A DNA stretch of 64,000 bases from Actinomycetota bacterium (GCA_040757835.1 JBFLWJ010000006.1:66512-130511), one strand, 5' to 3'. Positions 2,616 through 30,583 are shown, counted from the stretch's first letter. Numbers and translations: made by a program. The notes: a model not told the origin generated them from the letters alone.

Positions 2616-4331
2616 ATGGAGCGGGTAGCCCGGCTTTCGAAGAACACCGCGGCCCTGGTGGGCGCGAGGATCGTGACCTCGAGCCTCACCTTCATCCTGG
2701 CCATCATCATCAACCGCAACCTGGGCCCGGAAGCGGCCGGCATCTACACCTACGCCTTCACCCTCTACACCATCTTCCAGGTGATACCGGACTTCGGCCT
2801 CGGTAACATATCCATCCGCGACGTCTCCCAGCAGGTCTCCCGGCTGCGCCGTTACTTCGCGAACATCGTGTCGCTGCGCTTCCTCCTCGGCCTCATCGCC
2901 TTCTCCCTGCTCATGTTGACCAACTTCATCAGCCTGGCCGTGCAGGGGTCGGGGGGGCTGTCCGGGGACAAGTTCTGGGTGGTCTTCACCATCGCCTTCT
3001 GCCTCCTGGTCGAGCAGCCGTTCTCCAACTCCCTGTGCGAGAACTTCATCGCCCTGGAGAGGCTGGGGGTGGTGGCCCTGGTCTACCTGATCATGGGGAT
3101 CATGAAGGTGGCCATGTCCATCTACGTGGTCACCGCCGGCTTCGAAAACGTCCTCGTCTACCTGGTGCTCATCTACATCATCACCATCATCTACTCCATC
3201 TTCCACCTCTACCTGCTCTACCGGCGCGTCCTGCGCCGGACGGAACCTGCCGAGGCGGAGATCAGCGACATGGTGGTGGCCGAGGCGGTCACCCACGGGC
3301 CGGTGCCGTTCGGCGACGCGGCCATGGAGGCGCTGCTCGCGGATTACTCCTATGCCGGGCTGTCCGAGGAGACGGAGAAGGTGGACGCAGGCGCCGGGGA
3401 GGAAACTCAACAACCACCGGTGGCCCCCCCGCCGGAAGAGCCGGCCCTGGTCACCAGGATCGGCCCCTTCACCATGGACGGCAGGTTCTGGCGCTACCTG
3501 CTGGTTAGCGCATGGCCCCTGGCCATCGTCGCCGCGGGCGTGACCATCTACGCCGGCATGGACGTCCCTCTCATCTCCTGGATCAGGGGAGACACCGAGG
3601 TGGGCTTGTACAGCGCCGCCGGCATGTTCGCGAAGGCCCTGGTGTTCTTGACCCTCGCCCTCAACATGGCGGTGCTGCCGGCTGTCTCCAAGGTGGGCGG
3701 CAAGCATCCCGACCGGCTGGGGCAGGTGTGGGAGCGCCTCATCCACTACGCGCTGCTCCTGGTGGTGCCGCTGGTGGTGATCATCCCCGTGCTGGCCCGT
3801 CCCGTCCTGGTGCTGCAGAGATTCCAGTACATCGAGGCCTGGCCCGCCACCTGGCTGACCATGGCCGCCATGACCTTCACCTTCATGACCGCGGTCAGCT
3901 ACCCCTTCTTCATCGTCATCAACAAGCAGAAGACCATCTCCATCGTGGTCCTCTTCGGCCTCCCCCTGAAGGCCGTCCTGGGGATCGTGGCCATCTCCAT
4001 CTGGGGATATATTGGCGCCGCGGCGAGCGTGCTGCTCAGCGAGTGCGTGGTCTTCTGCCTGCTCTACTGGAAGCTGTCACGCGACCTCGAGCACCGTATA
4101 AACTTCCTCCGCTTCGCGGGGGTACCCGCGCTCATGCTGGGAACGCTCTACGGTATCGCCTTCGTCCTAAACAGCGCGCTGGCGGTGGGCAAGGACACCT
4201 TCGCGAGCGCGCTGCAGGCCGCCTTTATCATTGCGGCCGCGCTGACGATTGTTTATATAGTACTGGCCATCGTGACCAAGGCCCTGAGCAGAAAGGGCTT
4301 GCAGGAACTGAACGAGCTGCTTACGGTGTGA
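2616..4331 (+). CDS. Wzx-type flippase (PST/MATE-like polysaccharide exporter)
   Basis: 'RLSKNTAALVGARIV', 'DFGL', 'VGLYSAA' motifs; about 14 hydrophobic segments; acidic internal insertion. Confidence 0.85.
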   Translation: MERVARLSKNTAALVGARIVTSSLTFILAIIINRNLGPEAAGIYTYAFTLYTIFQVIPDFGLGNISIRDVSQQVSRLRRYFANIVSLRFLLGLIAFSLLMLTNFISLAVQGSGGLSGDKFWVVFTIAFCLLVEQPFSNSLCENFIALERLGVVALVYLIMGIMKVAMSIYVVTAGFENVLVYLVLIYIITIIYSIFHLYLLYRRVLRRTEPAEAEISDMVVAEAVTHGPVPFGDAAMEALLADYSYAGLSEETEKVDAGAGEETQQPPVAPPPEEPALVTRIGPFTMDGRFWRYLLVSAWPLAIVAAGVTIYAGMDVPLISWIRGDTEVGLYSAAGMFAKALVFLTLALNMAVLPAVSKVGGKHPDRLGQVWERLIHYALLLVVPLVVIIPVLARPVLVLQRFQYIEAWPATWLTMAAMTFTFMTAVSYPFFIVINKQKTISIVVLFGLPLKAVLGIVAISIWGYIGAAASVLLSECVVFCLLYWKLSRDLEHRINFLRFAGVPALMLGTLYGIAFVLNSALAVGKDTFASALQAAFIIAAALTIVYIVLAIVTKALSRKGLQELNELLTV

Positions 4332-4365: not shown

Positions 4366-5421
4366 GTGATGACATTCGGCCGGAGATGCAAGTTGTATCT
4401 GGCGGCGCTGGTGATCCTCGCCGCCGGCCTGCTGTCGAGCGGATGCGGCTGCGTCCTGGGCCAGATCATCGACCAGGCCGGCGTGACCGTGAGGGGACTG
4501 GCCTGCGCCAACGAGATCGCCCAGAAGGCGGGCGAGGGCTACGACGTACGCGAGGCGCGGGCCAAGTGGCTGGAGGCCCTGGACGCCTATAACCAGGGCG
4601 ACTATTCCAGGGCGGACGAGCTAATCGACGCGACCTACGACGCCATGGCCGACATGGAGAAGGTGGCGGAGCGGGTGTACTACCCGAGCTCGGGCGGTCT
4701 GACCGTCTCCGGCCTGCTCTTCCGCCCCGCCGAGGGCAGCGGCCCCTGGCCCACCATCATCGTCAGCCACGCCGGTTTCGGCACCGCCGGAGACTTCAGC
4801 GACGTGGCCCTGATCATACGGGACCAGGGCTACCTGGTCTTCAACCCCGACTTCCGGGGCAGCGGCATGTCAGAGGGCAGCCACGAGGGGGCCAAGGGGG
4901 AGGTGGACGACGTGATCGCGGCCATCGACTACCTGGAATCGGAGGGGCTCATCGCGGACGGGCGCATCGGCCTCTACGGCCAGAGCCACGGCGCCGCGGT
5001 GTCGGTGCTGGCCGCGGAGCGCGACCCGCGCATCAAGGCGGTGGTGGCCGAGGCGGGCTTCTACGACGCCGTTGACCTCTACAACAGCGGCATCAACTCC
5101 CCCGACCCCAACGTCAAGAACGTCCTCAACGAGATGCTGCCAATGGTGGGCGGCACGCCCGAGCAGGTCCCGCAGGAATACGCCGTGCGCTCGGCGCTGA
5201 ACTACGTCGATTCCATGCAGGCCGCGACCCTGCTCATCCACGGCGAAAAGGACCCCCTCTGCCCCGTGGACCAGGCGCGCCGGCTCTACGACGCGCTGCA
5301 AGCGGCCGGCAAGACGGTGGAGATCAAGCTCTACCCCGACGAAGCCCACTGCGTCGTCGATCCCGCGGGCCGGCTGGAGGTGTGGGACCTCATGTTCGCC
5401 TGGTTCGAGGAGTATGTCTAG
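4366..5421 (+). CDS. Exported S9/DAP2-like alpha/beta hydrolase, probable lipoprotein
   Basis: Signal peptide ending LLSSGC; GQSHG nucleophile, HGEKD acid, EAH His; HAG and PDFRG oxyanion region. Confidence 0.8.
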   Translation: MMTFGRRCKLYLAALVILAAGLLSSGCGCVLGQIIDQAGVTVRGLACANEIAQKAGEGYDVREARAKWLEALDAYNQGDYSRADELIDATYDAMADMEKVAERVYYPSSGGLTVSGLLFRPAEGSGPWPTIIVSHAGFGTAGDFSDVALIIRDQGYLVFNPDFRGSGMSEGSHEGAKGEVDDVIAAIDYLESEGLIADGRIGLYGQSHGAAVSVLAAERDPRIKAVVAEAGFYDAVDLYNSGINSPDPNVKNVLNEMLPMVGGTPEQVPQEYAVRSALNYVDSMQAATLLIHGEKDPLCPVDQARRLYDALQAAGKTVEIKLYPDEAHCVVDPAGRLEVWDLMFAWFEEYV

Positions 5422-5468
5422 CGGGCGCGGCGGGGCCGCACCAGCCCGGCCAATGCCCGCGTGGGGTG

Positions 5469-6908
5469 ATGAGTATGCCGAGCGATGAGCGCGACAGGCC
5501 GGCGCCGGTCTCACCGGAGCTGTACACGCGCGAGTACTTCACCACCGACTGCGAGGGGTACGACCTCTTCCTGCAGGGGGCGGAACGGCTCCCCGAGCGC
5601 ATCGAGGTGGCGCTGGACTCCGCGGGAGACCTACGCGGCAGGCGCATCCTGGACATAGGGTGCGGACGCGGCGAACTGGTGTGCGAGGCGGCGCGGCGCG
5701 GGGCGTACGCCGTGGGCATCGACTACGCCCAGGCCGCCATCGAGCTCTCGCGCGAGCGCCTGGCCAAGCTGGACACGGAGCTGCGGGAACGGGTGGAATT
5801 CCTCCTGGCCAACGCCACGGGGCTGGATTTTCCCGACGGCAGCTTCGACGCCGTCTTCCTGGTGGACGTATACGAACACCTCCACCCCCACGAGATAGAG
5901 CATACCCTGGGCGAGGTGAAGCGGGTGCTGCGTCCTGGCGGCCGCCTCGTCGTGCACACCGGGCCCAACACCTGGTTCTACCGCTTCGGGTATCCCTTGG
6001 TGCGCGAGGCGGCGCGCCGCCTGCTGCGCCGTGAGTTCCCGGAGAGCCTGCGCGGGCAGTACGACGACATCATGCACGTGAACGAGCAGGACCCCCTCTC
6101 CCTTTACCGCGGCCTGACCGCGGCGGGATTCAAGGCGGCGGTGAGGCCGCGCAGTTTCCTGGAGGGCATCGACCCTGAGAGCTGGGAGAAGGCGATGATG
6201 GGGGTGCTCTTCGCGCGGCCCCTGGGATACCTCTTCTGCACCAGCCTCATGGCCACCGCCGTCCCCCGCGAAAGCGGCGGCGAGGCGCGCCTGCGCACTG
6301 TCCGCATGCTGCGCATGCTGGACACCGTACAGGGCGACATCCTGCTGGTGGGCGAGGGCGAGGGCATGCTGGCGCGGCGTCTTGCCGGTCGGGACGGCGT
6401 CCGCGTCACCTGGCTGGAGCCGGGGAGCCCCGGGGGGGTGGCGGGTGAGTCACCCCTGGTGGCGGAGGGATACGAACGCCTGGTGGGCGGCCCCGACTCT
6501 CCGCCCTCCGCGCCCGGCGGCTTCGGCGCCGTGGCGGCGCAGTTCACCCTGGACGAGGTGGAGGACCCGGCCGCGGCGCTGCGCGCCTGGCATGGGGCGC
6601 TCAGGGACGGGGGAGCCCTGGTCCTGGCGGCCCGCAACGGCCTCTTCGGGGGCCCCGAGCAGAGGCCCTCTTCCCGGCCCCGCCGCACCTTCACCCCCGC
6701 GGCCCTGTCAGCCCTGGTGGAGGAGGCGGGCTTCGCCGTGGGCGAGGTCTCCACTCTCCTGCCCGACCTCAAGCTGCCGGCGCTCTACCGCGGCGACCTG
6801 GGTTTCGCCCTGCGCCTGGAACGCATACCATATTTTGCCATGAAGGGCAAGCTGCTCTTCCTGCGCGCCGTGAAGGGCCCCGCGCCCGGAAGGGGGAAGG
6901 CGCCGTGA
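5469..6908 (+). CDS. Tandem class I SAM-dependent methyltransferase (two MTase domains)
   Basis: Domain 1 ILDIGCGRG..GID..FPDGSFD..VYEHL; domain 2 ILLVGEGEG (degenerate motif I). Start moved from 5382 to the ATG at 5469 (or 5475) to avoid overlapping the upstream gene. Confidence 0.8.
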   Translation: MSMPSDERDRPAPVSPELYTREYFTTDCEGYDLFLQGAERLPERIEVALDSAGDLRGRRILDIGCGRGELVCEAARRGAYAVGIDYAQAAIELSRERLAKLDTELRERVEFLLANATGLDFPDGSFDAVFLVDVYEHLHPHEIEHTLGEVKRVLRPGGRLVVHTGPNTWFYRFGYPLVREAARRLLRREFPESLRGQYDDIMHVNEQDPLSLYRGLTAAGFKAAVRPRSFLEGIDPESWEKAMMGVLFARPLGYLFCTSLMATAVPRESGGEARLRTVRMLRMLDTVQGDILLVGEGEGMLARRLAGRDGVRVTWLEPGSPGGVAGESPLVAEGYERLVGGPDSPPSAPGGFGAVAAQFTLDEVEDPAAALRAWHGALRDGGALVLAARNGLFGGPEQRPSSRPRRTFTPAALSALVEEAGFAVGEVSTLLPDLKLPALYRGDLGFALRLERIPYFAMKGKLLFLRAVKGPAPGRGKAP

Positions 6909-8056
6909 GGGTGGGGATCGACGCGCGCGGCCTCTGCAACATCAACCGCACGCGCGGCATCGGACGCTACACCGCGCGCCTCACGGAGGCCCTGGTTGGT
7001 TCGGCGGGCAAGGATACCGCCTTCACCCTCTTCGGTTACGGGGAGGGCCCGGAACCGGGGCTCCTAGACGCCGGGGTGCTGGGCAGGGTGGAGTGGCGCT
7101 CCATGCGCCATGTCGAAGGCCTGTCCTACGCGGGGCTGCTGGCGGACCACCTGAGCATGGCCCGGGCCGTGAATTCATCCGGGGTGGACCTCTTCCACGC
7201 CATGGACCACAACATGACCCCCTTCCTGCGCGTCCCCAGCCTGGTCACCGTGCACGACCTCATCCTGCTGGTGCTGCGCGGTCCCTACCTCGGGCCCACG
7301 GCGTGGGCGTGGATGCTGGCACACAGGCGCGCGGCGCGGCGGGCGCGCCTGGTGGTGGCGGTGTCCGAGAACACCCGCCGCGACGTCGAGCGCATCTGGT
7401 CCATCCCCGGGGAGCGCGTCGCCGTGGTCCACGAGGGGGTGACGCCGGAATACCGTCCCGTCGAGGACGCGGAGAAGCTGCGGGAGGTGGGCGAGGGCTA
7501 CGGCATCGCCGCGCCATACTTCCTCTACCTGGGCGGTTTCGACCCCCGCAAGAACCTGCGCAACATGCTCGCCGGCTTCAAGCTCTTCCTCCTCGCCACG
7601 GGCGCTGTCCACAGCCTGGCGCTGTGCGGGGACGCCAGGGGGTTCGAGGGCTACCTGACCGATACCGTGGAAGAACTGGGGCTGGAGGAAAACGTGGTTC
7701 TCACCGGCTTCGTGCGCGAGGATGACCTGCCCGCCCTCTACAGCGGGGCGGACGCCTTCGTGTGCGTCTCCCTCTACGAGGGCTTCGGGCTGCCGCTGCT
7801 CGAGGCCATGGCCTGCGGTACGCCGGTGCTGGCATCGGGCGTATCCTCCATACCCGAGGTAGTGGGAGACGCCGGGCTGCTGGTGGACCCCCTGGAGCCG
7901 GCGGAGATAGCCGCTGGCCTCGAGCGCCTGGCCGGTGATGAGGGCCTGGCGGCGGAGCTGTCCGCGCGGGGGCGCGAGCGCGCGGCCGCCTTCACCTGGG
8001 AACGCGCGGCCGGGCGCATCCTGGAGCTCTACGGGTCCGTGAGGGGGGGTGGGTGA
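6905..8056 (+). CDS. GT4 family glycosyltransferase
   Basis: MRVGIDAR start, 'TVHDLI', 'VSENT', 'PRKN', 'EGFGLPLLEAMACG'; GTGA overlap with previous gene. Confidence 0.9.
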   Translation: MRVGIDARGLCNINRTRGIGRYTARLTEALVGSAGKDTAFTLFGYGEGPEPGLLDAGVLGRVEWRSMRHVEGLSYAGLLADHLSMARAVNSSGVDLFHAMDHNMTPFLRVPSLVTVHDLILLVLRGPYLGPTAWAWMLAHRRAARRARLVVAVSENTRRDVERIWSIPGERVAVVHEGVTPEYRPVEDAEKLREVGEGYGIAAPYFLYLGGFDPRKNLRNMLAGFKLFLLATGAVHSLALCGDARGFEGYLTDTVEELGLEENVVLTGFVREDDLPALYSGADAFVCVSLYEGFGLPLLEAMACGTPVLASGVSSIPEVVGDAGLLVDPLEPAEIAAGLERLAGDEGLAAELSARGRERAAAFTWERAAGRILELYGSVRGGG

Positions 8057-9677
8057 GCTGAAGGTACGCGAGGAGAAGAGGTCCCTGGCCGGCTCACCCG
8101 CACTGATACGGGTGATGGCGCTCCTGGCCGTCATCGGCTTTCTGGGGCTGCTGGTCGGCGCCATGTCCTCGCGCCTGCCGGTGCTCATCCTCTTCGGGGT
8201 CCTCGGGGGGGTGGCCCTGCTGGTCATCGTGTGGTTCTACCCCTTCTTCGGGGTGGTGCTGGCCTTCATCTCCAACCTCATCATCCCCCAGGCGGGGCCC
8301 AACTGGAACCTGGGCATCCAGGTGGCCATCGTCGGGGAGACGCGGGGGCTCCACTTCAACGTGCACGAGATCATCATGGCCATGGTCCTTCTCGCCGTGC
8401 TCATAAAAATCCTCATCAGCGTGTGGAAAAAGGACTGGGACGACGTGAGGGACCTGGTGAGAAGCCCCATCTCCATCGGGGTGGCCCTCTACGTGCTCAC
8501 CAGTATCCTGGCCTGCTTCATCGGGCTCATCAACGACGCCGAGGGGTTGCTGGTGCTCTTCCGCTTCGTGCGCACCACCTTCTTCTTCTACATCTTCTTC
8601 ATGATGATCTACATCGTCAGGAACCGCAGGCAGTTCCAGGTGCTGATAGTTGCCATGCTCGTCTGCTTCACCCTCATCGCCGCCTTCGGGCTGGTGCAAA
8701 AAGCCCTGGGCGAGACCTGGTCCAACCAGTTCAACGAGAAGGTGCTGAAGAGGCTCGGCTACCCGGCCGATATCAACTACGTCGCGGGCGAGAGCAGCGC
8801 CCAGGCCTACCGCATCAACTCCACCTTCGCTCACCCCAACATCCTGGGAGGGTACCTGGTCTTCGCCCTGCCCTTCTTCGTGAGCTTCCTCAGCCTTACC
8901 TGGCGCCTGCAACGCTACCGGCTGTGGCTGCTGTTGCTCGTGGCCCTGGGGATAAACCTCGCCGCCCTCTTCCTCACCGGCTCGCGTGCGGCCTGGGTGG
9001 CCGCCGGGGTCATCGCCTTCCTCTACGGCATCTTCGGCTTCTTCGACCGCCGCATGTGGCTGGTGCTGGTCACCGTGCTGCTGGTCTTCGCGCTCATCTT
9101 CGTCATGCTCAACCCGCCCGAGTTCGTGAAGAAGCGCTTCAGCGGCCTGAGCGCCAAGGAAGCCGCCGATTCACGCATGTACCAGTACAAGCTGGCCCTG
9201 GACTACTTCCTGGAGCACCCGCTCTTCGGCATCGGAATGGGCATGGAGGGGCAGCGCATCATCGAGAACAACCTGCGCTACACCTGGGCCGCGGTGGAGA
9301 ACGTCTGGCTCACCTATATGGTCTCCCATGGCGTGGTCGGGCTCAGCGCCCTGCTGCTGGTGTTCATCCTCTACTGGATGGTCCTGTTCAAGGCGCGCAG
9401 CGGGTCGAAGAACGATCCCTTCATCTACTTCAACGCCGAGGCCTTCATCCTGGGCATGGTCGGTTTCGCCGTGTCCAACATGTTCGGTGCCTGGCTGCTC
9501 TTCGCCATCCCCATGGTCACCCTGATGTGGTTCTACATGGGCATGGCGGGGAGCCTGTACAATATCTACCAGGCCGAGCAGGAGGTCACCCAGCCGGAAC
9601 TGCCATCTCCCGAGCCTTTCGTGTCCGCCCTGCCCTTCCCTAACGCCGCCTATCAGGAGCCGCGCGGTACGCCATGA
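8049..9677 (+). CDS. O-antigen ligase / Wzy polymerase family membrane protein
   Basis: Multi-TM; 'RINSTFAHPN', 'LTGSRAAW', 'HPLFGIG', 'ENVWL' (HNxYL-like) motifs. Confidence 0.85.
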   Translation: MGELKVREEKRSLAGSPALIRVMALLAVIGFLGLLVGAMSSRLPVLILFGVLGGVALLVIVWFYPFFGVVLAFISNLIIPQAGPNWNLGIQVAIVGETRGLHFNVHEIIMAMVLLAVLIKILISVWKKDWDDVRDLVRSPISIGVALYVLTSILACFIGLINDAEGLLVLFRFVRTTFFFYIFFMMIYIVRNRRQFQVLIVAMLVCFTLIAAFGLVQKALGETWSNQFNEKVLKRLGYPADINYVAGESSAQAYRINSTFAHPNILGGYLVFALPFFVSFLSLTWRLQRYRLWLLLLVALGINLAALFLTGSRAAWVAAGVIAFLYGIFGFFDRRMWLVLVTVLLVFALIFVMLNPPEFVKKRFSGLSAKEAADSRMYQYKLALDYFLEHPLFGIGMGMEGQRIIENNLRYTWAAVENVWLTYMVSHGVVGLSALLLVFILYWMVLFKARSGSKNDPFIYFNAEAFILGMVGFAVSNMFGAWLLFAIPMVTLMWFYMGMAGSLYNIYQAEQEVTQPELPSPEPFVSALPFPNAAYQEPRGTP

Positions 9678-9724
9678 GGTGACCGCCGCCGTCGAAAGAG
9701 CAGCGTCACCATACATAAAACAGT

Positions 9725-9752
9725 TTGCAATTCGAAACCATTCGGTTATAAT
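9725..9752 (+). promoter_or_regulatory. Sigma70-type promoter upstream of the riboswitch/adhesin
   Basis: TTGCAA (9725-30), 16 bp, TATAAT (9747-52) in an AT-rich intergenic stretch. Confidence 0.65.
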
Positions 9753-9781
9753 GTAGTTGCCATAGATAGCGATAGCAGCTC

Positions 9782-9862
9782 ACGATAGGGAAGCGACGAT
9801 CCGTAGCGCGTGACATGGTTACCAGTGCTGCGGGGAGCTAGTGGTGAAACCGGCCCGATCGT
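9782..9862 (+). ncRNA. c-di-GMP-II riboswitch aptamer
   Basis: P1 ACGAU-AGGG/CCC-GAUCGU; GGAAGCGACGAU; 9-bp stem CCGUAGCGC/GUGCUGCGG; loop UUACCA can pair with UGGUGA (pseudoknot); 3' GGAGCUAGUGGUGAAACCG resembles the family consensus GAGUUAGUAGUGCAACCG. Confidence 0.85.
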
Positions 9863-9882
9863 TTTAAGCGGTCGGGTTTTTT
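9854..9882 (+). terminator. Intrinsic terminator, expression platform of the riboswitch
   Basis: CCCGAUCG-7 nt loop-CGGUCGGG followed by U6; 5' arm overlaps the P1 3' strand. Confidence 0.8.
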
Positions 9883-10136
9883 CATACAAGTATAGGCAGA
9901 CAAGTAAGACGGGCAGACAAAAGGAGGACGCAAGAAGGGGTAGAAGGGCAGGGAAAAGGGAAAGCTTTCCGGTCGTGGCCAGAACTCACTCGGCGTAGAT
10001 ATCTGGAACAGACCCCGGAAGGAACCTCCCGAAACCACCCACTGGCACTCTTCGGATGTTGCGCTCGCGAAACCGGACGTTAAAGCGAGCGCCGCGTCCC
10101 GATCTTGGGAAAGGCACTATTGCGGAGGTGACGTCA

Positions 10137-13100
10137 ATGAGCAAGTCGACCAGGTGGTTGGCACTCGTCTCCATCACGGCACTGGTACTAATGTCGCTTC
10201 TGGGCGGGATCGTCTCCGCCCTGGCCGGAAACGGCGCTGCGTCAAAGGCAGGTGCCGGAAGCGTGATGGCGGAGGGTGCGGCAGTCATCACACCGGAGCA
10301 GAACCCGCCCCCGGACGGGGGGGAGACCACTGAAAAGGCGGTCCTCGAGGAGACGCAGAGCGGGATCTTGTGCGAAAAGGGCAAGATCATCGTCATCAAG
10401 TTCCTCGACGCCAACGAGAACAAGGTGATGGACAAGGGCGAGACGGGCATGGCCGGCGTGACCGTCACCATCAATGGTGGAAACCCCAAGGTGACCGGGA
10501 GCGACGGCAAGGTCGTTTTCGACGGGCTCCTGCCCGGCACATATATTGTGGCCGAGGTTGTCCCCGCAGGTTACCACCCCACCGACAAGGCCTCCTACAC
10601 TATCGATATATGCTGGGATCAGTGCAAGACCGTCTATATCGGCAACGCCCCCGACGAGGAGCTCAAGGGCTCCATATCCGGCCACAAGTACAACGACGTG
10701 GACGCGAGCGGCGGCTACAGCGCGGGCGACCTCCCCCTGGCCGGAGTGACCATCAACCTGCTCAAGGACGGGCAGGTCATCGACTCCACCACCACGGCCG
10801 CGGACGGGAGCTACTCCTTCAGCGATCTGGCGCCCGGCAACTACGAGGTAGAGGAGGTCCTCCCCGCGGGGACCGAGGCCACCTCGCCCACCAAGCTGGC
10901 GGCGCCGGTGACGGAGAACTGCCTGGACGTCACGGGCAAGGACTTCTTCAATAAGGTCATCGAAATAGAGCTGAAGGGCTCCATCTCCGGCCATAAGTAC
11001 AACGACGTGGACGCAAGCGGCGGCTACAGCGCGGGCGACCTCCCCATGGCGGGAGTGGTGATCGAGCTGTGGAAGGACGGCGCCAAGGTAGCCCAGACGA
11101 CCACGGCAGCGGACGGGAGCTATTCCTTCACGGACCTAGCCCCCGGCGATTACACGGTAAAGGAGGTCCTGCCCCTGGGGACCGAGGCTACCTCCCCCAC
11201 CAGCGTTGACGTCACGGTGTCTGAGGAAGACCTGGACATCACCTGCGTCGACTTCTTCAACAAGGAAGTCCCGCCCGAGTGCGACGACGGCATCATCGAG
11301 GGCGTGGTCAGGGTGGACGAGGACTGCGACGGCGAGTTCACCTGGGACGACCCGCTCCTCGACGGCGTCATCTTCAGGCTCTACCATATCGAGGACGGGG
11401 GCGGCCTCACGCCGGTCGTGCCACCGTCCCAGATAAGTGGACCGGGTTGGGGATACAACGTCTTCCTCCCCCTGGTCATACCGGTCTATTATCCCGGCGG
11501 GCACGTCATCTGGGAAGGCCTGCCGCGCGCATACGGCGGCAGCACGACCTCTGCCCGTTACCGGCTGGTCATGGAGGTGCCGGAGGGGTACACGCCCATC
11601 GGGCCGGTCAGCTACGACCTCGAGCTCCACAACTGCCCGTGGCCCTGTTTCTGGTTCAGCAAGAACTTCCTGCTCTCCAGGAACTCGCACCTGCGCGGGC
11701 ACAAGTACGAGGACGTGAACTGCAACGGCGTATACGACGCCGCGATGGATAAGCCGCTCGAGGGCTGGACCATCGAGCTCTACAAGGACGGTTCGCTCAT
11801 CGCCACCACCACGACCAACGCCGCGGGCGAGTACAGCTTCGAGGACCTCCCCGAGGGCGTGTACACGGTCAAGGAGGTGCTGCAGGACGGCTGGATGTAC
11901 AGCTATCCCGCGGACGGTACCTTCGTGGACGTGCCGGTTGGATGCGGGGACGTCGACGGCAAGGACTTCCTCAACAAGCGCTACCTCGGCATCAGCGGGC
12001 ACAAGTTCCAGGACGCGAACTACGACGGCGTCATCGACGCCGGGGACCCCGGCGTGCCGGGCGTGGAGGTGCAGCTGTTCAAGTGGGACGAGGGCAGCGG
12101 CGAATACGAGTACCTGGCTTCGACGGTGACCGGGGCCGGCGGTTACTACGAGTTCACGGACCTGGTGCCCGGTGACTACAAGGTGCAGGAGGTGCTCACG
12201 CCGGAGCTCCTTGAGGACTGGTACATCGTCAGCCCCGAGGGCGGCGTGTTCGTCCCCGTGGAACTGGAGTGCGAGAGCGTCGAGGACCTGGACTTCCTCA
12301 ACGCGCTATACCTCGGCATCAGTGGGCATAAGTACGAGGACGCCGACGGCGACGCCGAGATCGGCGGGGAAGACCCGGGGGTGCCGGGAGTCGAGATCCA
12401 GCTGTTCATCTGGAACGAGAACAGCGGCGAGTTCGATCTCCTGGCTTCGACAGTGACCGGAGCCGGCGGTTACTACGAGTTCACGGGGCTCAAGCCCGGT
12501 ACCTACAAGGTACAGGAGATACTCACACCAGCGCTGCTGGAGGACTGGTACATCATCAGCCCCGAGGGCGGCGTGTTCGTCCCGGTGGAGCTGACGAGCG
12601 GGGACGTCGAGGACAAGGACTTCCTCAACGCCCGCTACGGCGCCATCGAGGGATGGAAGTACTGGGACAAGGACGAGAACGGCATAATGGACGGTGATGA
12701 CGAGGGGCTGGCCGGCGTGGCCATCATCCTCGATCCTCCCCCGGACCTGGGCGCGCCCCGCGTGGCCATCACCGACGCAGAAGGACATTTCTTCTTCGGC
12801 GGCCTCAAGCCGGGCACCTACACGGTGAGCGTGGACGAGTCCACGGTGCCCGACTACTATCCCATCAGCCCGGTCACCGTCGAGGTGGACGTGGTCAACG
12901 CCGTGACGGTGCAGGTCTATTTCTCCGAGGCGCCCTACGGTTCCATCTCCGGCAAGAAGTGGCTGGACGCCAACGCGGACGGGATATGGGGCGAGGACGA
13001 GACGGTGGTCATCGCGGGCATCACCATCAACCTCTACGAGGGCAACCCGCCCGGAGAGCTCATCGCCTCCACTGTTACCGGTGAGGACGGCTACTACGAG

Positions 13101-13976
13101 TTCACCAAGCTCAAGCCCGGAATCTACACGGTGGTAGAGGAGGGCAAGGAGGGTTACTTCGCCTGCACTCCCATCGAGGTGGAAGTGGTCCTCTCGGCCG
13201 GAGAGGGAGCCGTGGTGGACTTCGGCAACTGCCCCTACGGGCGCATCGAGGGGTTGAAATACCTCGATGAAGACGGTGACGGTGCCCAGGATGCCACCGA
13301 GAGCGGTCTCGAGGGAGTGGAGATCACCCTGGTCGGGCTGGACGTCGATGTCATCGCCATCACCACCACCGGTGAAGACGGCAGCTTCGTCTTCAACGAC
13401 CTGATCCCGGGAAGGTATGTGGTCTCGGAGACCGTTCCTTCCGGTTATTACTTCACCCGTCCCATAAGGGTCGAGGTGGTCGTGGGCGCGGGAGAGAGCA
13501 TATCGGTCATCTTCGCCAACGCGCTCTACGGCAGGATCGTCGTGAACAAGTGGCTGGACGACGGAGACCAGCTGCTCGACCCGGAGAAGGACACGCCCAA
13601 GGCGGGCATGCCCATCAAGCTCACCGGCAAGACCGTCAGGGGCGAACTGGTGAGCATTGAGACGGTGACGGACGAGGACGGTAGTTATACCTTCCTCCTG
13701 CTGGAGGCTGGAGACTATACCGTGACCGAGACCTACGACCCGGAGAAGATGATGGCCATCACGCCGGACAGCGTGGATGTGGCGCTGCCCCCGGGCGGAG
13801 AGGAAGTAGTGGACTTCCTCAACGCCGAGGTCGAGGTGTCCCCCGAAGTCATCGAGGCGGATACACTGCCGCAGACCGGCATCAACCAGCTACCGCTGCT
13901 GTTCGCCGCGGGGACGCTGGTGCTCGCGGGCCTGGTCTTCCTGGCCCTGGGTCTGCGCAGGCGCTTCCAGGAATAA
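10137..13976 (+). CDS. Sortase-anchored surface adhesin with 11 SdrD-B/CnaB-like domains
   Basis: Signal peptide; repeats G-x-I-x-G-x-K-Y-x-D-x-D-x-D-G...Y-x-V-x-E...F-x-N; C-terminal LPQTG + hydrophobic helix + RRR. RBS GGAGGT favours the ATG at 10137 over 10056. Confidence 0.9.
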   Translation: MSKSTRWLALVSITALVLMSLLGGIVSALAGNGAASKAGAGSVMAEGAAVITPEQNPPPDGGETTEKAVLEETQSGILCEKGKIIVIKFLDANENKVMDKGETGMAGVTVTINGGNPKVTGSDGKVVFDGLLPGTYIVAEVVPAGYHPTDKASYTIDICWDQCKTVYIGNAPDEELKGSISGHKYNDVDASGGYSAGDLPLAGVTINLLKDGQVIDSTTTAADGSYSFSDLAPGNYEVEEVLPAGTEATSPTKLAAPVTENCLDVTGKDFFNKVIEIELKGSISGHKYNDVDASGGYSAGDLPMAGVVIELWKDGAKVAQTTTAADGSYSFTDLAPGDYTVKEVLPLGTEATSPTSVDVTVSEEDLDITCVDFFNKEVPPECDDGIIEGVVRVDEDCDGEFTWDDPLLDGVIFRLYHIEDGGGLTPVVPPSQISGPGWGYNVFLPLVIPVYYPGGHVIWEGLPRAYGGSTTSARYRLVMEVPEGYTPIGPVSYDLELHNCPWPCFWFSKNFLLSRNSHLRGHKYEDVNCNGVYDAAMDKPLEGWTIELYKDGSLIATTTTNAAGEYSFEDLPEGVYTVKEVLQDGWMYSYPADGTFVDVPVGCGDVDGKDFLNKRYLGISGHKFQDANYDGVIDAGDPGVPGVEVQLFKWDEGSGEYEYLASTVTGAGGYYEFTDLVPGDYKVQEVLTPELLEDWYIVSPEGGVFVPVELECESVEDLDFLNALYLGISGHKYEDADGDAEIGGEDPGVPGVEIQLFIWNENSGEFDLLASTVTGAGGYYEFTGLKPGTYKVQEILTPALLEDWYIISPEGGVFVPVELTSGDVEDKDFLNARYGAIEGWKYWDKDENGIMDGDDEGLAGVAIILDPPPDLGAPRVAITDAEGHFFFGGLKPGTYTVSVDESTVPDYYPISPVTVEVDVVNAVTVQVYFSEAPYGSISGKKWLDANADGIWGEDETVVIAGITINLYEGNPPGELIASTVTGEDGYYEFTKLKPGIYTVVEEGKEGYFACTPIEVEVVLSAGEGAVVDFGNCPYGRIEGLKYLDEDGDGAQDATESGLEGVEITLVGLDVDVIAITTTGEDGSFVFNDLIPGRYVVSETVPSGYYFTRPIRVEVVVGAGESISVIFANALYGRIVVNKWLDDGDQLLDPEKDTPKAGMPIKLTGKTVRGELVSIETVTDEDGSYTFLLLEAGDYTVTETYDPEKMMAITPDSVDVALPPGGEEVVDFLNAEVEVSPEVIEADTLPQTGINQLPLLFAAGTLVLAGLVFLALGLRRRFQE

Positions 13977-14136: not shown

Positions 14137-14610
14137 CTACCACTCGAACCCTATGCCCGGGTCGTCGTAGGGGATGCGCTCCTCATCGGGGGCGGAGGGG
14201 TCGTAACTCTCGGTGGTATGGTAGAAGAGGCCGGCCGGCCGGTCTCCCAGCACCTGGTAGCCGTGGGCCACGCCGGGGGGGATGACCACCAGCAGGGGCT
14301 TGTGCTCGCCCGCGTAGATGACCTGGGTCTGCCGGTAGGTGGGCGAGCCCTCCCGGAGGTCGTGGAGCACCACCCGCGCCTCGCCCATGGCCATGAACCA
14401 CAGGTCGTACTGCCTGCGGTGCCAGTGGAAGGCCTTGATGACGCCGGGGTAGGTGACGGTGAAGGTGGTCTGCCCGAAGCGCTCCAGGAGGCCGTCGTCG
14501 TCGCGCAGCACTTCCAGCAGGTATCCCCTCTCGTCGCAGAAACGCATGAGGGGCTTGACGCGCACACCTTCTATGTTGCCTGCGGGCATTCCGTCCATGT
14601 TCATCACCAT
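14137..14610 (-). CDS. rfbC: dTDP-4-dehydrorhamnose 3,5-epimerase family cupin
   Basis: 'DERGYLLE', 'GVIKAFHWH', 'IPPGVAHGY', 'YDPSAPDEERIPYDDP'. Confidence 0.85.
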   Translation of the reverse strand: MVMNMDGMPAGNIEGVRVKPLMRFCDERGYLLEVLRDDDGLLERFGQTTFTVTYPGVIKAFHWHRRQYDLWFMAMGEARVVLHDLREGSPTYRQTQVIYAGEHKPLLVVIPPGVAHGYQVLGDRPAGLFYHTTESYDPSAPDEERIPYDDPGIGFEW

Positions 14611-14713: not shown

Positions 14714-14791
14714 CTCCGTTAGACCCCGTACGTTATTCGTGCTAAGTTTCTACTGTGGGTGCTCCGACAGTTCGCAAGGAGGAGGACGGGG

Positions 14792-15652
14792 ATGCGCGTT
14801 ATCGTCTGCGGCGCCGCCGGCCAGCTGGGCACGGACCTCGTAAGCGTCTTCGAGGCCGGGGGCGAGGAGGTGATGGGTTTCGACCTGGACCTCGACATCA
14901 CCGACCATGCCCTGGTCATGGAGAAGATACCCTACCTCCGGCCGGACCTGCTCATCAACTCCGCCGCTGACCTCGACGCCGACCAGGCGGAGCGGGACCC
15001 CGAGCCGTCTCTGAAGACCAACTTCACCGGCACCCAGAACCTGGTCCTGGCCTGCCTGGAGGCGGGCTGCCCCATGGCCTTCATCAGCTCGGACTACGTC
15101 TTCGACGGCCTCAAGGGCAGTGCCTATAACGAACTCGACGAGCCCAATCCCCAGGGGGTTTACGGCAAGGCCAAGCTGGCCTCCGAACGCTATCTCGCCT
15201 CGTCCCTCCCCCGCTGGTACGTGTTCCGCACCCAGTGGCTCTTCGGCAAGGGCGGCAAGCGCAACTTCGTCAAGAGCATCCTGCGCAACGCCAAAGAGAA
15301 GGGCAGCCTGCGAGTGGTCACCGACGAGGTGGGCACCCCCACCTGTACCGCCGACCTGGCGGAGATCATCTACAACGTATGCACCTCCGACTGGCACGGC
15401 CTCTACCACGCCACCAACGAGGGGGTGTGTTCGCGCTTCGAGTTCGCGCAGCAGATCGTCGAGATCGCCGGCATGGGGGACGTGCCGGTGGAGCCCATCG
15501 TCTATGCCGACCTCGACCTCCCCTGCCCCCGGCCTCCCTATTCGCCCCTGGACAACATGAACCTGCGCCTGCAGGGTTTTCCGCCCGCCCGCCATTACCT
15601 GGAACCCCTGCGGGAATATATCGCCTGGCTGCTGGAGAGCGACGGTTATTGA
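14792..15652 (+). CDS. rfbD: dTDP-4-dehydrorhamnose reductase
   Basis: GAAGQLG, 'ISSDYVFDG', YGKAK, 'GTPT', RPPYSPL; start moved to the ATG at 14792 (RBS GGAGGA). Confidence 0.92.
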   Translation: MRVIVCGAAGQLGTDLVSVFEAGGEEVMGFDLDLDITDHALVMEKIPYLRPDLLINSAADLDADQAERDPEPSLKTNFTGTQNLVLACLEAGCPMAFISSDYVFDGLKGSAYNELDEPNPQGVYGKAKLASERYLASSLPRWYVFRTQWLFGKGGKRNFVKSILRNAKEKGSLRVVTDEVGTPTCTADLAEIIYNVCTSDWHGLYHATNEGVCSRFEFAQQIVEIAGMGDVPVEPIVYADLDLPCPRPPYSPLDNMNLRLQGFPPARHYLEPLREYIAWLLESDGY

Positions 15653-30276: not shown

Positions 30277-30583
30277 AGTGATCCCCCTTTCTTCGTCGGG
30301 CGAGCGCCTCATCGCTCTCCGGGGCAAAGCACCGGCAAGGCTTCGCCACATGAGCTAAGATTTCAACCCCACAATGCGCCCCATTACGCATTGGTAACAT
30401 ATATTTTAATTCGATGAGTTCGACCCGGCAACCTTACCGACAACTTATCGGGTTACCCCCTGCCCACGTGAACGGAAGCATGATGACGCGGGCGCCTGCC
30501 TGGACTGTTCGCTACCCTTGCGCGAACAAATAGCCTGTATTAATATGTTTAAAAGCGACATGGAGTCGGAAAAGGAGGTAGCC

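Follow-up and report, generated by a model that had tools for sequence, protein, structure and literature searches.

A c-di-GMP-II riboswitch predicted to switch on a sortase-anchored adhesin gene in a Geothermincolia-like actinomycete, with a conserved leader that may be the target of an antisense small RNA

In C. difficile, class II c-di-GMP riboswitches are ON switches located before the genes of the sortase substrates CD2831 and CD3246 (PMC11477304). The ligand contacts of the class were described for 3Q3Z and comprise the A14-U60 pair, A61 as the ceiling, A69, A70, G73 and an A.G pair atop P1 (PMC13715770). Here, a 64,000-nucleotide stretch of DNA from an Actinomycetota bacterium (GCA_040757835.1; hereafter the window) is compared with these systems. 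As in the C. difficile loci, a c-di-GMP-II aptamer with a predicted terminator-type ON platform lies directly upstream of a gene for a sortase-anchored repeat adhesin. Unlike those loci, the host is a Geothermincolia-like Actinomycetota MAG and not a member of the Clostridia, the first pseudoknot pair is U-A and not G-C, no protease partner of the PPEP-1 type was seen here, and a conserved leader of ~250 nt with a putative small RNA (sRNA) target intervenes between terminator and gene. The aptamer resembles RF01786/3Q3Z (Clostridium acetobutylicum) in its three-helix junction, its pseudoknot, all of its pocket residues and a score above the gathering threshold, and differs by a lineage-specific compensatory pseudoknot pair. 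A c-di-GMP-II ON riboswitch governing the adhesin is, with good confidence, the best explanation of the locus; its proposed extension by an sRNA is graded apart below.

The sequence-only reading had proposed a promoter, an aptamer, a pseudoknot and a terminator upstream of the adhesin gene, and all four were recovered where it had placed them (Table 1). The promoter has 10 of 12 matches, for which shuffled sequences would lead one to expect 0.4 such sites; in nine orthologous loci, its -10 box is invariant and its -35 box reads TTTnCA. The adhesin mRNA is predicted to start near 9759. Against RF01786, the aptamer scored 61.3 bits (E 3.3e-11), the best match of its clan and above the gathering score of 53.5 bits, so the proposed c-di-GMP-II identity passed the covariance-model check. 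The pseudoknot joins the P3 loop to the 3' tail, pairing UUACCA (9819-9824) with UGGUGA (9842-9847) and GG (9817-9818) with CC (9850-9851), and is split by the ligand-contacting AA. When the pocket residues were transferred via the Rfam (cmscan) alignment onto the 3Q3Z description (PMC13715770), A13-U60 (9792/9839), A61 (9840), A69 (9848), A70 (9849) and G73 (9852) were found to be kept, and A12.G74 (9791/9853) forms the non-canonical A.G topping P1. By family membership, the window aptamer is a canonical class II c-di-GMP aptamer that would be expected to bind its ligand.

Table 1. Features of the adhesin locus and its surroundings, numbered within the window unless another contig is named
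Feature	Position	Strand	Details
Polysacc_synt flippase	2616-4331	+	
S9-family hydrolase	4366-5421	+	
Methyltransferase	5382-6908	+	
GT4 glycosyltransferase	6905-8056	+	
Wzy_C polymerase/ligase	8049-9677	+	
Sigma-70-type promoter	9724-9752	+	-35 TTTGCA (9724-9729), 17-nt spacer, -10 TATAAT (9747-9752)
c-di-GMP-II aptamer	9780-9864	+	Rfam RF01786, model 1-84 (full length)
Aptamer helix P1	9782-9790/9854-9862	+	
Aptamer helix P2	9792-9794/9837-9839	+	
Aptamer helix P3	9801-9808/9826-9833	+	
Aptamer pseudoknot	9817-9824 with 9842-9847 and 9850-9851	+	
Intrinsic terminator	9852-9882	+	stem 9852-9863/9867-9878, loop 9864-9866, U run 9877-9882
Conserved stretch	9883-9925	+	CATACAAG (9883-9890), GGCAGACAA twice (9895-9903, 9912-9920)
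Leader block (model R2)	9912-10011	+	~100 nt: purine-rich tract, H1 9947-9974, H2 9979-10006
CCUCCC tract	10025-10030	+	candidate anti-Shine-Dalgarno; would pair with GGAGG 10124-10128
Shine-Dalgarno and start	GGAGG 10124-10128, ATG 10137-10139	+	
Surface protein gene	10137-13976	+	1,279 aa: signal peptide, ten SdrD_B/SpaA-type repeats, LPQTG, membrane span, basic tail
rmlC-like gene	14137-14610	-	dTDP_sugar_isom 75.5 bits
rmlD	14759-15652	+	RmlD_sub_bind 252.9 bits
Predicted sRNA gene	G000 C1, about 266415-266491	-	~75 nt; outside the window

The relatives are MAGs that carry the label Actinomycetota, among them Candidatus Solincola of the class Ca. Geothermincolia, and the deep-branching actinomycete first suspected as the host was therefore the right guess. 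Eight related MAGs of Geothermincolia-like Actinomycetota share the complete cassette, and the gene order Wzy_C, riboswitch, adhesin is preserved in 8 of 11 related loci. Forty aptamers of the lineage also support the claim that the pseudoknot has covaried: 88% of its cells are paired, one pair alternates between C-G (31) and U-A (8), and the first pair is U-A in 39 of the 40, as opposed to G-C in the Rfam consensus. Over the whole aptamer, 80% of cells are paired versus 69% in shuffles, and 20 of 30 pairs are altered on both sides, with such changes in 8/8 pairs of P3, 2/3 of P2 and 9/11 of P1. The covariation score is 0.341, compared with 0.149 after shuffling and at most 0.119 with the partners slid.

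The terminator shares its 5' arm with the 3' strand of P1, as had been read from the sequence: the arm 9852-9863 takes in 9854-9862, and the two folds are mutually exclusive. The terminator hairpin is predicted at -16.6 kcal/mol versus -6.4 kcal/mol for P1 alone, which includes one A.G mismatch, and the ligand-free minimum free energy fold of the full-length RNA forms the terminator. A weak P1 is common in class II aptamers. Among the orthologues, the terminator stem is conserved and its loop variable; a hairpin of this kind comes after each of the 40 lineage aptamers, and in 32 cases a stretch of four or more U comes next. Since the folds exclude each other and the terminator wins without ligand, the element reads naturally as an ON switch, and because of the shared strand, c-di-GMP binding should permit read-through; the earlier proposal that the ligand blocks the terminator is thus consistent with the modelled folds. 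Both the ligand, c-di-GMP, and the direction of switching are what we infer. The mRNA from the sigma-70-type promoter would present the class II aptamer within its first ~105 nt. Without ligand, the 3' strand of P1 would pair downstream into the terminator, and transcription would end at ~9882; once c-di-GMP is bound, the shared strand would be retained by P1 and the pseudoknot, the terminator would be blocked, and the polymerase would continue through the ~250-nt leader into the gene for the sortase-anchored ten-repeat SdrD_B protein. High c-di-GMP would thereby turn on an adhesin encoded next to surface-polysaccharide genes.

The adhesin begins with MSKSTRWLALVSITALVLMSLLGG...ALAG, a signal peptide, contains ten SdrD_B stretches (E 3.9e-120), and ends in LPQTG (13866-13880), 25 hydrophobic residues and RRRFQE. 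The Gram_pos_anchor profile gave 19.7 bits, just below the Pfam cut-off of 20, with the motif clearly legible. By its signal peptide, its LPXTG tail and the sortases of the genome, the product is a sortase-anchored LPXTG protein, and it lies where an LPxTG adhesin beside EPS and rml genes had been described, between the cluster ending in Wzy_C and the rmlC-like and rmlD genes. The suggested genome search for sortases and GGDEF proteins returned 3 and 10 matches, respectively. GCGGAGGTGA and the ATG are kept in nine orthologues. An open reading frame start at 10056 was set aside in favor of the likely ATG at 10137, which has GGAGG at 10124-10128.

The conserved leader of ~250 nt that separates the terminator from the start codon had been absent from the sequence-only reading; it probably holds a second control element. 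The repeated GGCAGACAA at its beginning also follows the terminators of c-di-GMP-I leaders in relatives. Farther downstream, the leader block scored 97.1 bits against model R2, which found 59 copies in 22 of 41 relatives. In 36 of the copies, a class II aptamer precedes the start of the block by 32-51 nt (by 152 nt in one case). Its two hairpins are paired in 90% (H1) and 74% (H2) of cells, a moderate level of support for H2; RNAalifold returned no consensus structure for the block, and an Rfam search with it returned no family. Pairing between the CCUCCC tract and GGAGG appears in folds in which the upstream block is absent or blocked, and orthologues have a pyrimidine-rich tract at this position. 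Blocking the leader block raised the predicted Shine-Dalgarno pairing in 10 of 17 leaders (0.58 to 0.99 in the window), and the sRNA-bound mimic left it unchanged in 7 of the 17.

The riboswitch itself is ordinary; what is new is this conserved block together with a probable antisense sRNA, hinting at a second control layer. One copy of the block per genome lies in the opposite sense, in the window's own genome (G000) within the C1 intergenic region spanning sortase, c-di-GMP-I and CAP-protein. Among the R2 copies, 23 have no class II aptamer; on the opposite strand, T(A/C)AA-N16-nnCGAnnn occurs in 20 of these and in the one from family f3 (L065). The boxes T(A/C)AA-N16-GCCGATAA, correctly placed and oriented and separated by a variable spacer, were present in 21/21 examined copies without a class II aptamer and in 0/22 copies in class II leaders. 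In the sRNA-type copies, these boxes are followed by two hairpins and a U-rich tail, and conservation extends from the -35 box to the U run. The terminator, GACCGGRAAG-N8-CUUUCCGGUC followed by the U-rich tail, is conserved in alignment A6 and is called on the minus strand of locus L070 by a terminator scan; the tail is weaker in G000 (UCUUUCCUUUGU). Leader positions 9916-10007 are complementary to the predicted sRNA over ~90 nt, with a duplex energy of -102.8 kcal/mol versus -47.5 +/- 4.7 for shuffled sRNA and -53.5 +/- 6.2 (minimum -71.4) for random genomic windows. For the sole sRNA-like gene outside the family (G029), no long targets were found. These features suggest that the opposite-sense copy is probably a so far undescribed small RNA of ~75 nt, the 5' end of which is expected 5-9 nt behind GCCGATAC. 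Its pairing with the leader would free CCUCCC to occlude the Shine-Dalgarno sequence or would give RNase III a duplex to cleave; either route would silence leak transcripts.

A simpler account retains the riboswitch as described but takes the leader block as a two-hairpin element that acts in cis on the mRNA, for example as a stabilizer, a processing site or an antitermination element of the put/EAR type, with no sRNA gene in the opposite-sense copy. We consider this account rather unlikely. In its favor, both hairpins pair well on the mRNA strand, G.U pairs included, the block keeps its fixed distance of 32-51 nt behind the aptamer, and one adhesin leader (G000 C18) has the block without any riboswitch. 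However, the opposite-sense copies carry a pair of conserved boxes set exactly N16 apart by a variable spacer, the signature of a promoter and not of a hairpin, and a U-rich tail directly follows H1 on the opposite strand at 21/21 loci versus 0/22 leaders. Moreover, the wobble pairs change strand: the sRNA genes have them on the minus strand, the leaders on the plus strand. A cis role and a role as antisense target are also mutually compatible.

The sRNA promoter boxes agree with the WhiG2 (WhiG/sigma-28) consensus TAAA-N16-GCCGATAA (PMC8325347). The genome encodes a WhiG-family sigma factor (TIGR02479, 295 bits versus a cut-off of 189.6) and a small, single-motif RsiG-like anti-sigma factor (PF22802, 64.6 bits versus a cut-off of 27). 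The signature of the latter, ESKVSYQRRVLHGKID, reads E..S..R..H..D, with H in place of Q, as permitted by the published E(X)3S(X)2R(X)3[Q/H](X)3D. As in Rubrobacter, where TAAA-N16-GCCGATAA boxes precede genes of the DGC/PDE type, WhiG-type boxes here also precede GAF-GGDEF and GAF-HD_5 genes; the 11 WhiG-like boxes genome-wide are only ~2x a rough chance expectation. The pair of WhiG-family sigma and RsiG-like protein is shared with Rubrobacter and Streptomyces, by analogy with which the RsiG-like protein may bind c-di-GMP. The arguments are evenly balanced on whether the leader block at 9916-10007 is targeted by a trans-encoded ~75-nt antisense RNA from such a WhiG/sigma-28-type promoter. 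Because the genome encodes both WhiG and an RsiG-like anti-sigma factor, c-di-GMP may control the adhesin twice: if the RsiG-like protein holds WhiG at high c-di-GMP, as happens in Rubrobacter and Streptomyces, sRNA synthesis would be confined to low c-di-GMP, and the riboswitch and sRNA arms would reinforce each other.

Unlike in the known WhiG-RsiG system, the WhiG-type promoter would here drive a non-coding sRNA aimed at riboswitch-controlled adhesin leaders; the searched text of a 2026 preprint on the WhiG regulon has no mention of an sRNA. Sigma-28-dependent sRNAs have been reported from E. coli (UhpU, MotR, FliX and FlgO; PMC10578931) and a FliA-dependent one from Campylobacter jejuni (PMC11187230). 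The proposed arrangement is similar in that a flagellar-type sigma factor would transcribe a post-transcriptional regulator within a lifestyle regulon. Whereas those sRNAs derive from UTRs and act on flagellar genes as Hfq-type regulators with short seeds, the predicted sRNA would be free-standing, with ~70-90 nt of complementarity to adhesin leaders, and closer to plasmid antisense RNAs.

It is improbable that the main adhesin promoter lies inside the leader, for example near CATACAAG, leaving the riboswitch merely additive or yielding a short terminated RNA. CATACAAG is conserved right behind the U run in orthologues and paralogues, and in relatives it recurs ~45-60 nt upstream of c-di-GMP-I aptamers, where a promoter is expected. 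Yet a scan of 9500-10300 found no sigma-70-like site besides 9724-9752, there is no conserved -35 box, the position of which falls in the variable terminator loop, and conservation of the class II cassette would have no purpose. That the aptamer senses another cyclic dinucleotide, or none, is hardly credible: the lineage-wide U-A for G-C in the pseudoknot, the orthologous aptamer (L009) that scores best with Rfam c-di-GMP-II-GAG, and the 13 of 40 lineage aptamers whose first P2 position lacks a standard pair, the pair that tunes ligand selectivity (PMC13715770), are outweighed by a window aptamer that scores best with the canonical model and retains the full set of pocket residues, by the compensatory nature of the pseudoknot change, which lies outside the listed ligand contacts, and by a genome that makes c-di-GMP (the ten GGDEF matches).

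Matches to c-di-GMP-II were found in 121 of 401 sampled Actinomycetota genomes (30%; 86 exceed the Rfam cut-off), which does not bear out the view that the class is unusual in actinomycetes; class II aptamers are not rare there, so the taxonomic surprise is small, and the window riboswitch is an ordinary member of its class. The aptamers are present in 24/24 family genomes, with 3-4 in the window's genome. Downstream of the lineage aptamers, SdrD_B/SpaA proteins account for 18 of 36 genes, with signal peptides in nearly all.

The riboswitch at this locus belongs to a familiar type of circuit, with c-di-GMP turning on a sortase-anchored adhesin. The new part is the leader behind it, a family-specific module outside Rfam that occurs in two forms, as a predicted sRNA gene with a WhiG-type promoter and, within adhesin leaders under riboswitch control, as its putative antisense target. 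The class II (c-di-GMP-II) aptamer proposed in the sequence-only reading was recovered when all of Rfam was scanned against the whole 64-kb window: RF01786 matched over its full model at 61.3 bits (gathering score 53.5; E 3.3e-11) and was the sole riboswitch match in the window, with nothing further of note beside it between 9600 and 10300 at relaxed thresholds. Pairs of the Rfam structure and the pseudoknot were then counted in 40 distinct aptamers from the window's own genome (G000) and 40 relatives. Standard pairs filled 80% of the cells, vs 69% after shuffling and at most 44% with the partners slid; changes on both sides were found in 20 of 30 pairs, all eight pairs of P3 covaried, and the pseudoknot was paired at 88%. 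The unusual pseudoknot proved to be a lineage trait, as the Rfam-consensus G-C pair is U-A in 39 of the 40 aptamers and the adjoining pair is C-G in 31 and U-A in 8. In 3Q3Z (class II), c-di-GMP is contacted by the A14-U60 pair, the ceiling adenine, A69, A70 and G73, together with the non-canonical A.G pair topping P1 (PMC13715770, 2026). The window equivalents in the cmscan alignment (A13-U60, A61, A69, A70, G73 and A12.G74) are all kept; the predicted ligand is c-di-GMP.

The promoter that had been proposed upstream, TTTGCA-17-TATAAT, has 10 of 12 consensus matches, with 0.4 such sites expected in shuffles. The proposed terminator was likewise found, as a terminator-like hairpin of 12 pairs followed by six T. 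Its 5' arm contains the 3' strand of P1; therefore, the two folds are mutually exclusive. Taken alone, the terminator hairpin has an energy of -16.6 kcal/mol and P1 one of -6.4 kcal/mol, and the minimum-energy fold of 9759-9886 contains the terminator and not P1. Since the terminator is favored without ligand, a ligand-stabilized P1 and pseudoknot should block termination. An ON-switch, the usual direction for class II riboswitches (PMC11477304), is thus the best reading of the modeled folds, in agreement with the earlier claim. The same layout recurs elsewhere: a hairpin stands behind all 40 lineage aptamers, and at least four U follow in 32 of them.

The gene behind the leader encodes an LPxTG adhesin, as had been anticipated. 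The 1,279-aa product has a signal-peptide-like N-terminus, contains ten SdrD_B/SpaA-type repeats (E 3.9e-120) and ends in LPQTG, a hydrophobic span and RRRFQE. The start of the gene is placed at an ATG 8 nt after GGAGG, preferable to 10056. The EPS neighborhood described earlier is borne out by the same-strand upstream genes for a Polysacc_synt flippase, an S9 hydrolase, a methyltransferase, a GT4 glycosyltransferase and a Wzy_C protein, and the rml genes do lie 3' of the adhesin gene. The suggested search for GGDEF proteins and a sortase returned 10 GGDEF matches and three sortases in G000.

Coordinates of features (bare positions refer to the window; C1, C4 and C15 are contigs of its genome, G000; L-numbers are fetched loci with their own coordinates)
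Feature	Position	Strand	Equivalent
Promoter	9724-9752
Class II aptamer	9780-9864	+
Terminator hairpin	9852-9878
Terminator 5' arm	9852-9863
P1 3' strand	9854-9862
T run	9877-9882
CATACAAG and GGCAGACAA segment	9883-9921
Leader block (model R2)	9912-10011
Leader segment pairing with sRNA (predicted)	9916-10007
Hairpin H1	9947-9974
Hairpin H2	9979-10006
CCUCCC tract	10025-10030
GC-rich hairpin	10061-10092
Adhesin start codon	10137
rmlC-like gene	14137-14610	-
rmlD	14759-15652	+
Predicted sRNA gene	C1 ~266415-266491 (boxes included, to ~266521)	-	L066 ~1500-1632
Class I riboswitch	C1:266717-266806	+	L066 1828-1917
CAP gene codons 3-7	L066 ~1990-2010
RsiG-like protein	C1 ~439414-439719	-
WhiG-type box	C1:446546-446573	-
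WhiG-type box	C15:23158-23185	+
WhiG-type box	C4:146290-146316	+
WhiG-type box	C15:51407-51434	+
Further class II aptamers	C1 ~29990-30583		L002 993-1179 (-) and 1501-1585 (+)
'GAG' type aptamer	L009 8033-8116

A search with the neighboring Wzy_C protein returned 11 related loci, all in MAGs labeled Actinomycetota and including two Candidatus Solincola species (class Ca. Geothermincolia). RF01786 occupies the same position in seven of the 11, and a 'GAG' variant does so in an eighth. Across a nine-locus alignment, the -10 box is invariant, and the aptamer, terminator stem and ribosome-binding site are kept, with a variable terminator loop. The aptamer is present in all 24 genomes of the Geothermincolia-like family; in G000 (3.44 Mb, 35 contigs), three copies exceed the cut-off and a weak fourth lies in tandem. 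Genes behind the lineage aptamers encode SdrD_B/SpaA repeat proteins in 18 of 36 cases, with a signal peptide in nearly all. A class II riboswitch in an actinomycete had been presented as unexpected; of 401 Actinomycetota genomes sampled, 121 (30%) have an RF01786 match, 86 of these above the cut-off, and the taxonomic surprise is therefore small. RF01786 is far commoner in Actinomycetota than the searchable literature suggests, and one family (f19) carries up to 10 copies per genome of just 1.3-2.4 Mb.

Elsewhere in G000, a tandem class II pair (57.1 and 26.4 bits), each member with its own hairpin, lies upstream of an SdrD_B protein gene, and a third aptamer (60.3 bits), pointing away from the pair, heads another secreted repeat protein. 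At the orthologous position in one relative (L009), the 'GAG' type (RF03169) scores 53.6 bits; it also occurs in L010, L025, L041 and L042. In this type, the position pairing with A13 is G, not U, and this position lacks a standard pair in 13 of the 40 lineage aptamers. The pair at the A13-equivalent position tunes cyclic-dinucleotide selectivity (PMC13715770).

From the U run to the start codon, the leader spans ~250 nt, the first ~130 nt of which are conserved; this conserved leader is a feature absent from the sequence-only reading. Its block was searched for first with an HMM and then with a covariance model (R2), which found 59 copies, spread over 22 of the 41 relatives; 21 of the 24 family genomes have two to five each, with almost none beyond the family. 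Thirty-six copies begin 32-51 nt (one: 152 nt) after a class II aptamer. Over 34 distinct copies, hairpins H1 and H2 are paired at 90% and 74%, with some compensatory changes. Both surfaced only through manual and CM-based alignment; RNAalifold alone gave no consensus structure for 19 copies (-2.4 kcal/mol). Within 9600-10300, the block matches no family of Rfam 15 at E <= 10.

Several other readings of the block were considered. The copies in opposite sense speak against a second aptamer, and no conserved expression platform stands at a fixed distance from the block. A promoter on the + strand is disfavored, with no sigma-70, ECF, sigma-54 or sigma-28 boxes seen by eye and no sigma-70-like site in a scan. 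The G tracts do not point to a G-quadruplex, as the four-tract pattern is not kept in orthologues. Elsewhere in the leader, CATACAAG abuts the U run and is followed by GGCAGACAA twice, both conserved; in relatives, the terminators of class I riboswitches are also followed by the GGCAGACAA pair, and CATACAAG is found again ~45-60 nt 5' of class I aptamers. The variable part holds a perfect 8-bp GC-rich hairpin, GCGCTCGC...GCGAGCGC, without a U run behind it and not kept in orthologues.

All of the first 11 block copies outside class II leaders are flanked on one side by a sortase gene and on the other by a c-di-GMP-I (class I) riboswitch (71-77 bits), itself upstream of the gene for a secreted CAP/DUF5719 protein. 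On both strands of these 11 loci at E <= 0.1, c-di-GMP-I was the single Rfam match; the block copies of this type had none. Read on the strand opposite the sortase and CAP genes, the block copies share one layout: CTAAAG(T), 14 variable bases (TAAA-N16) and GCCGATA(A/T), followed 5-8 nt past the -10 box by a GCCAAAA...UUUUGGC hairpin, a GACCGGRAAG-N8-CUUUCCGGUC hairpin that a terminator scan called as a terminator on this strand, and a U-rich tail. The layout is identical in nine more copies from other genomes, and a copy from a neighboring family shares it, the first stem showing compensatory changes. Conservation in the alignment runs from the -35 box to the U run, with a variable spacer separating the boxes. 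The published WhiG2/FliA consensus is T(A/C)AA at -35, N16 and GCCGATAA at -10 (bioRxiv 10.64898/2026.01.14.699351; PMC8325347). The boxes of these copies (in G000, TAAAGT-N14-GCCGATAC, WhiG/sigma-28 type) agree with it, and such boxes occur in 0 of 22 class II leader copies. Because of these promoter boxes, the hairpins, the U-rich tail and the bounds of conservation, the copies are read as encoding a small RNA of ~75 nt under a sigma-28-type factor, and this predicted sRNA probably exists.

Copies of the sRNA type number one per genome in 20 related genomes, and the arrangement of one predicted sRNA gene with one to four putative target leaders per genome is conserved across the Geothermincolia-like family. 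In the neighboring family, where co-evolution was to be assessed, an sRNA-like gene was found in one genome (G029) only, and long targets were not detected. When co-occurrence with the sRNA was examined, the WhiG family was present in 41 of 41 relatives, leaving no contrast. The class I riboswitch near the G000 sRNA gene is the genome's only one (76.4 bits) and precedes a secreted CAP and DUF5719 protein, adjoining the sortase gene; in at least 11 relatives, the sRNA gene likewise stands between the sortase gene and the class I riboswitch, with the CAP gene next.

As the leader block is the sRNA sequence in opposite sense, leader and predicted sRNA are complementary. With RNAduplex, 72 nt of the sRNA pair with the leader at a predicted -102.8 kcal/mol, against -47.5 +/- 4.7 kcal/mol for shuffled RNA and -53.5 +/- 6.2 kcal/mol (minimum -71.4) for 400 random 258-nt G000 windows; the two other block-bearing leaders of G000 give -90 and -98 kcal/mol. 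Such duplex energies, like the promoter matches, are predictions. The H2 loop sequence is identical in both versions, so the loops of the two RNAs are complementary throughout, in the manner of kissing antisense pairs. The strand assignment is supported by wobble pairs, which number 6 on the minus and 0 on the plus strand in sRNA-gene copies and 49 on the plus and 23 on the minus strand in leader copies. Between leaders and sRNA genes, differences on the mRNA strand that keep pairing (A>G and C>U) number 139 vs 87 for G>A and U>C, counted over sequences, not independent events.

A possible effect of pairing concerns translation. The leader carries a CCUCCC tract, with pyrimidine-rich equivalents in orthologues, that pairs with the Shine-Dalgarno GGAGG when the 3' half is folded alone; folding of the full leader brings in competition from the block's purine-rich part. 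With the block constrained unpaired to mimic the sRNA-bound state, predicted Shine-Dalgarno pairing rises for 10 of the 17 leaders of the orthologous set (mean 0.59 to 0.83); for the window leader, the rise is from 0.58 to 0.99. In these equilibrium folds, sRNA pairing fits translation repression; alternatively, the sRNA might act through cleavage of the long duplex. Overall, the chances that the sRNA acts on the window leader at all appear about even. CTCACTCGG, identical to the leader-block H2 loop and hence complementary to the predicted sRNA loop, also occurs within codons 3-7 (GGGCTCACTCGGTGG) of the CAP gene, here and in 10 relatives. The CAP mRNA start was rejected as a target: its 9-nt exact complement (CUCACUCGG; at most ~12 bp with flanks) gives -47.9, within the random range.

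On contig C2, at 144851-145528, G000 encodes a FliA/WhiG-family sigma factor (295 bits; cut-off 189.6) and has no Flagellin_N match. A ~100-aa RsiG-like protein matches Pfam RsiG (PF22802, 64.6 bits) and carries ESKVSYQRRVLHGKID, which fits E(X)3S(X)2R(X)3[Q/H](X)3D, the c-di-GMP-binding signature of single-motif RsiG proteins. The signature occurs once, with H for Q, and the protein would extend single-motif RsiG to the Geothermincolia-like lineage. At high c-di-GMP, the riboswitch would read through and the RsiG-like anti-sigma would hold WhiG, leaving the sRNA absent. If RsiG acts here in this way, the sRNA would be made at low c-di-GMP: the riboswitch would terminate, and WhiG released from the RsiG-like protein would transcribe the antisense RNA, which would pair with ~90 nt of the leader and silence leak transcripts. 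The two arms would reinforce each other; one adhesin, on another G000 contig (C18), would answer to the sRNA arm only. This full model of two c-di-GMP sensors converging on one mRNA leader is plausible, and we put it forward tentatively, as somewhat doubtful in its entirety. If true, it would be without precedent on two counts: in having a WhiG-dependent small RNA, and in backing a riboswitch with an antisense RNA that the same second messenger controls inversely. Confirmation would link the protein-based RsiG-WhiG switch to RNA-based c-di-GMP sensing on the same targets and offer a testable model for the sharpening of a leaky transcriptional riboswitch.

In G000, TAAA-N16-(G/C)CCGAT boxes also stand just upstream of GAF-GGDEF, GAF-HD_5 (HD-GYP-like), STAS and DivIVA genes, recalling the Rubrobacter regulon (PMC8325347). 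These four genes possibly form a WhiG regulon tied to c-di-GMP turnover.
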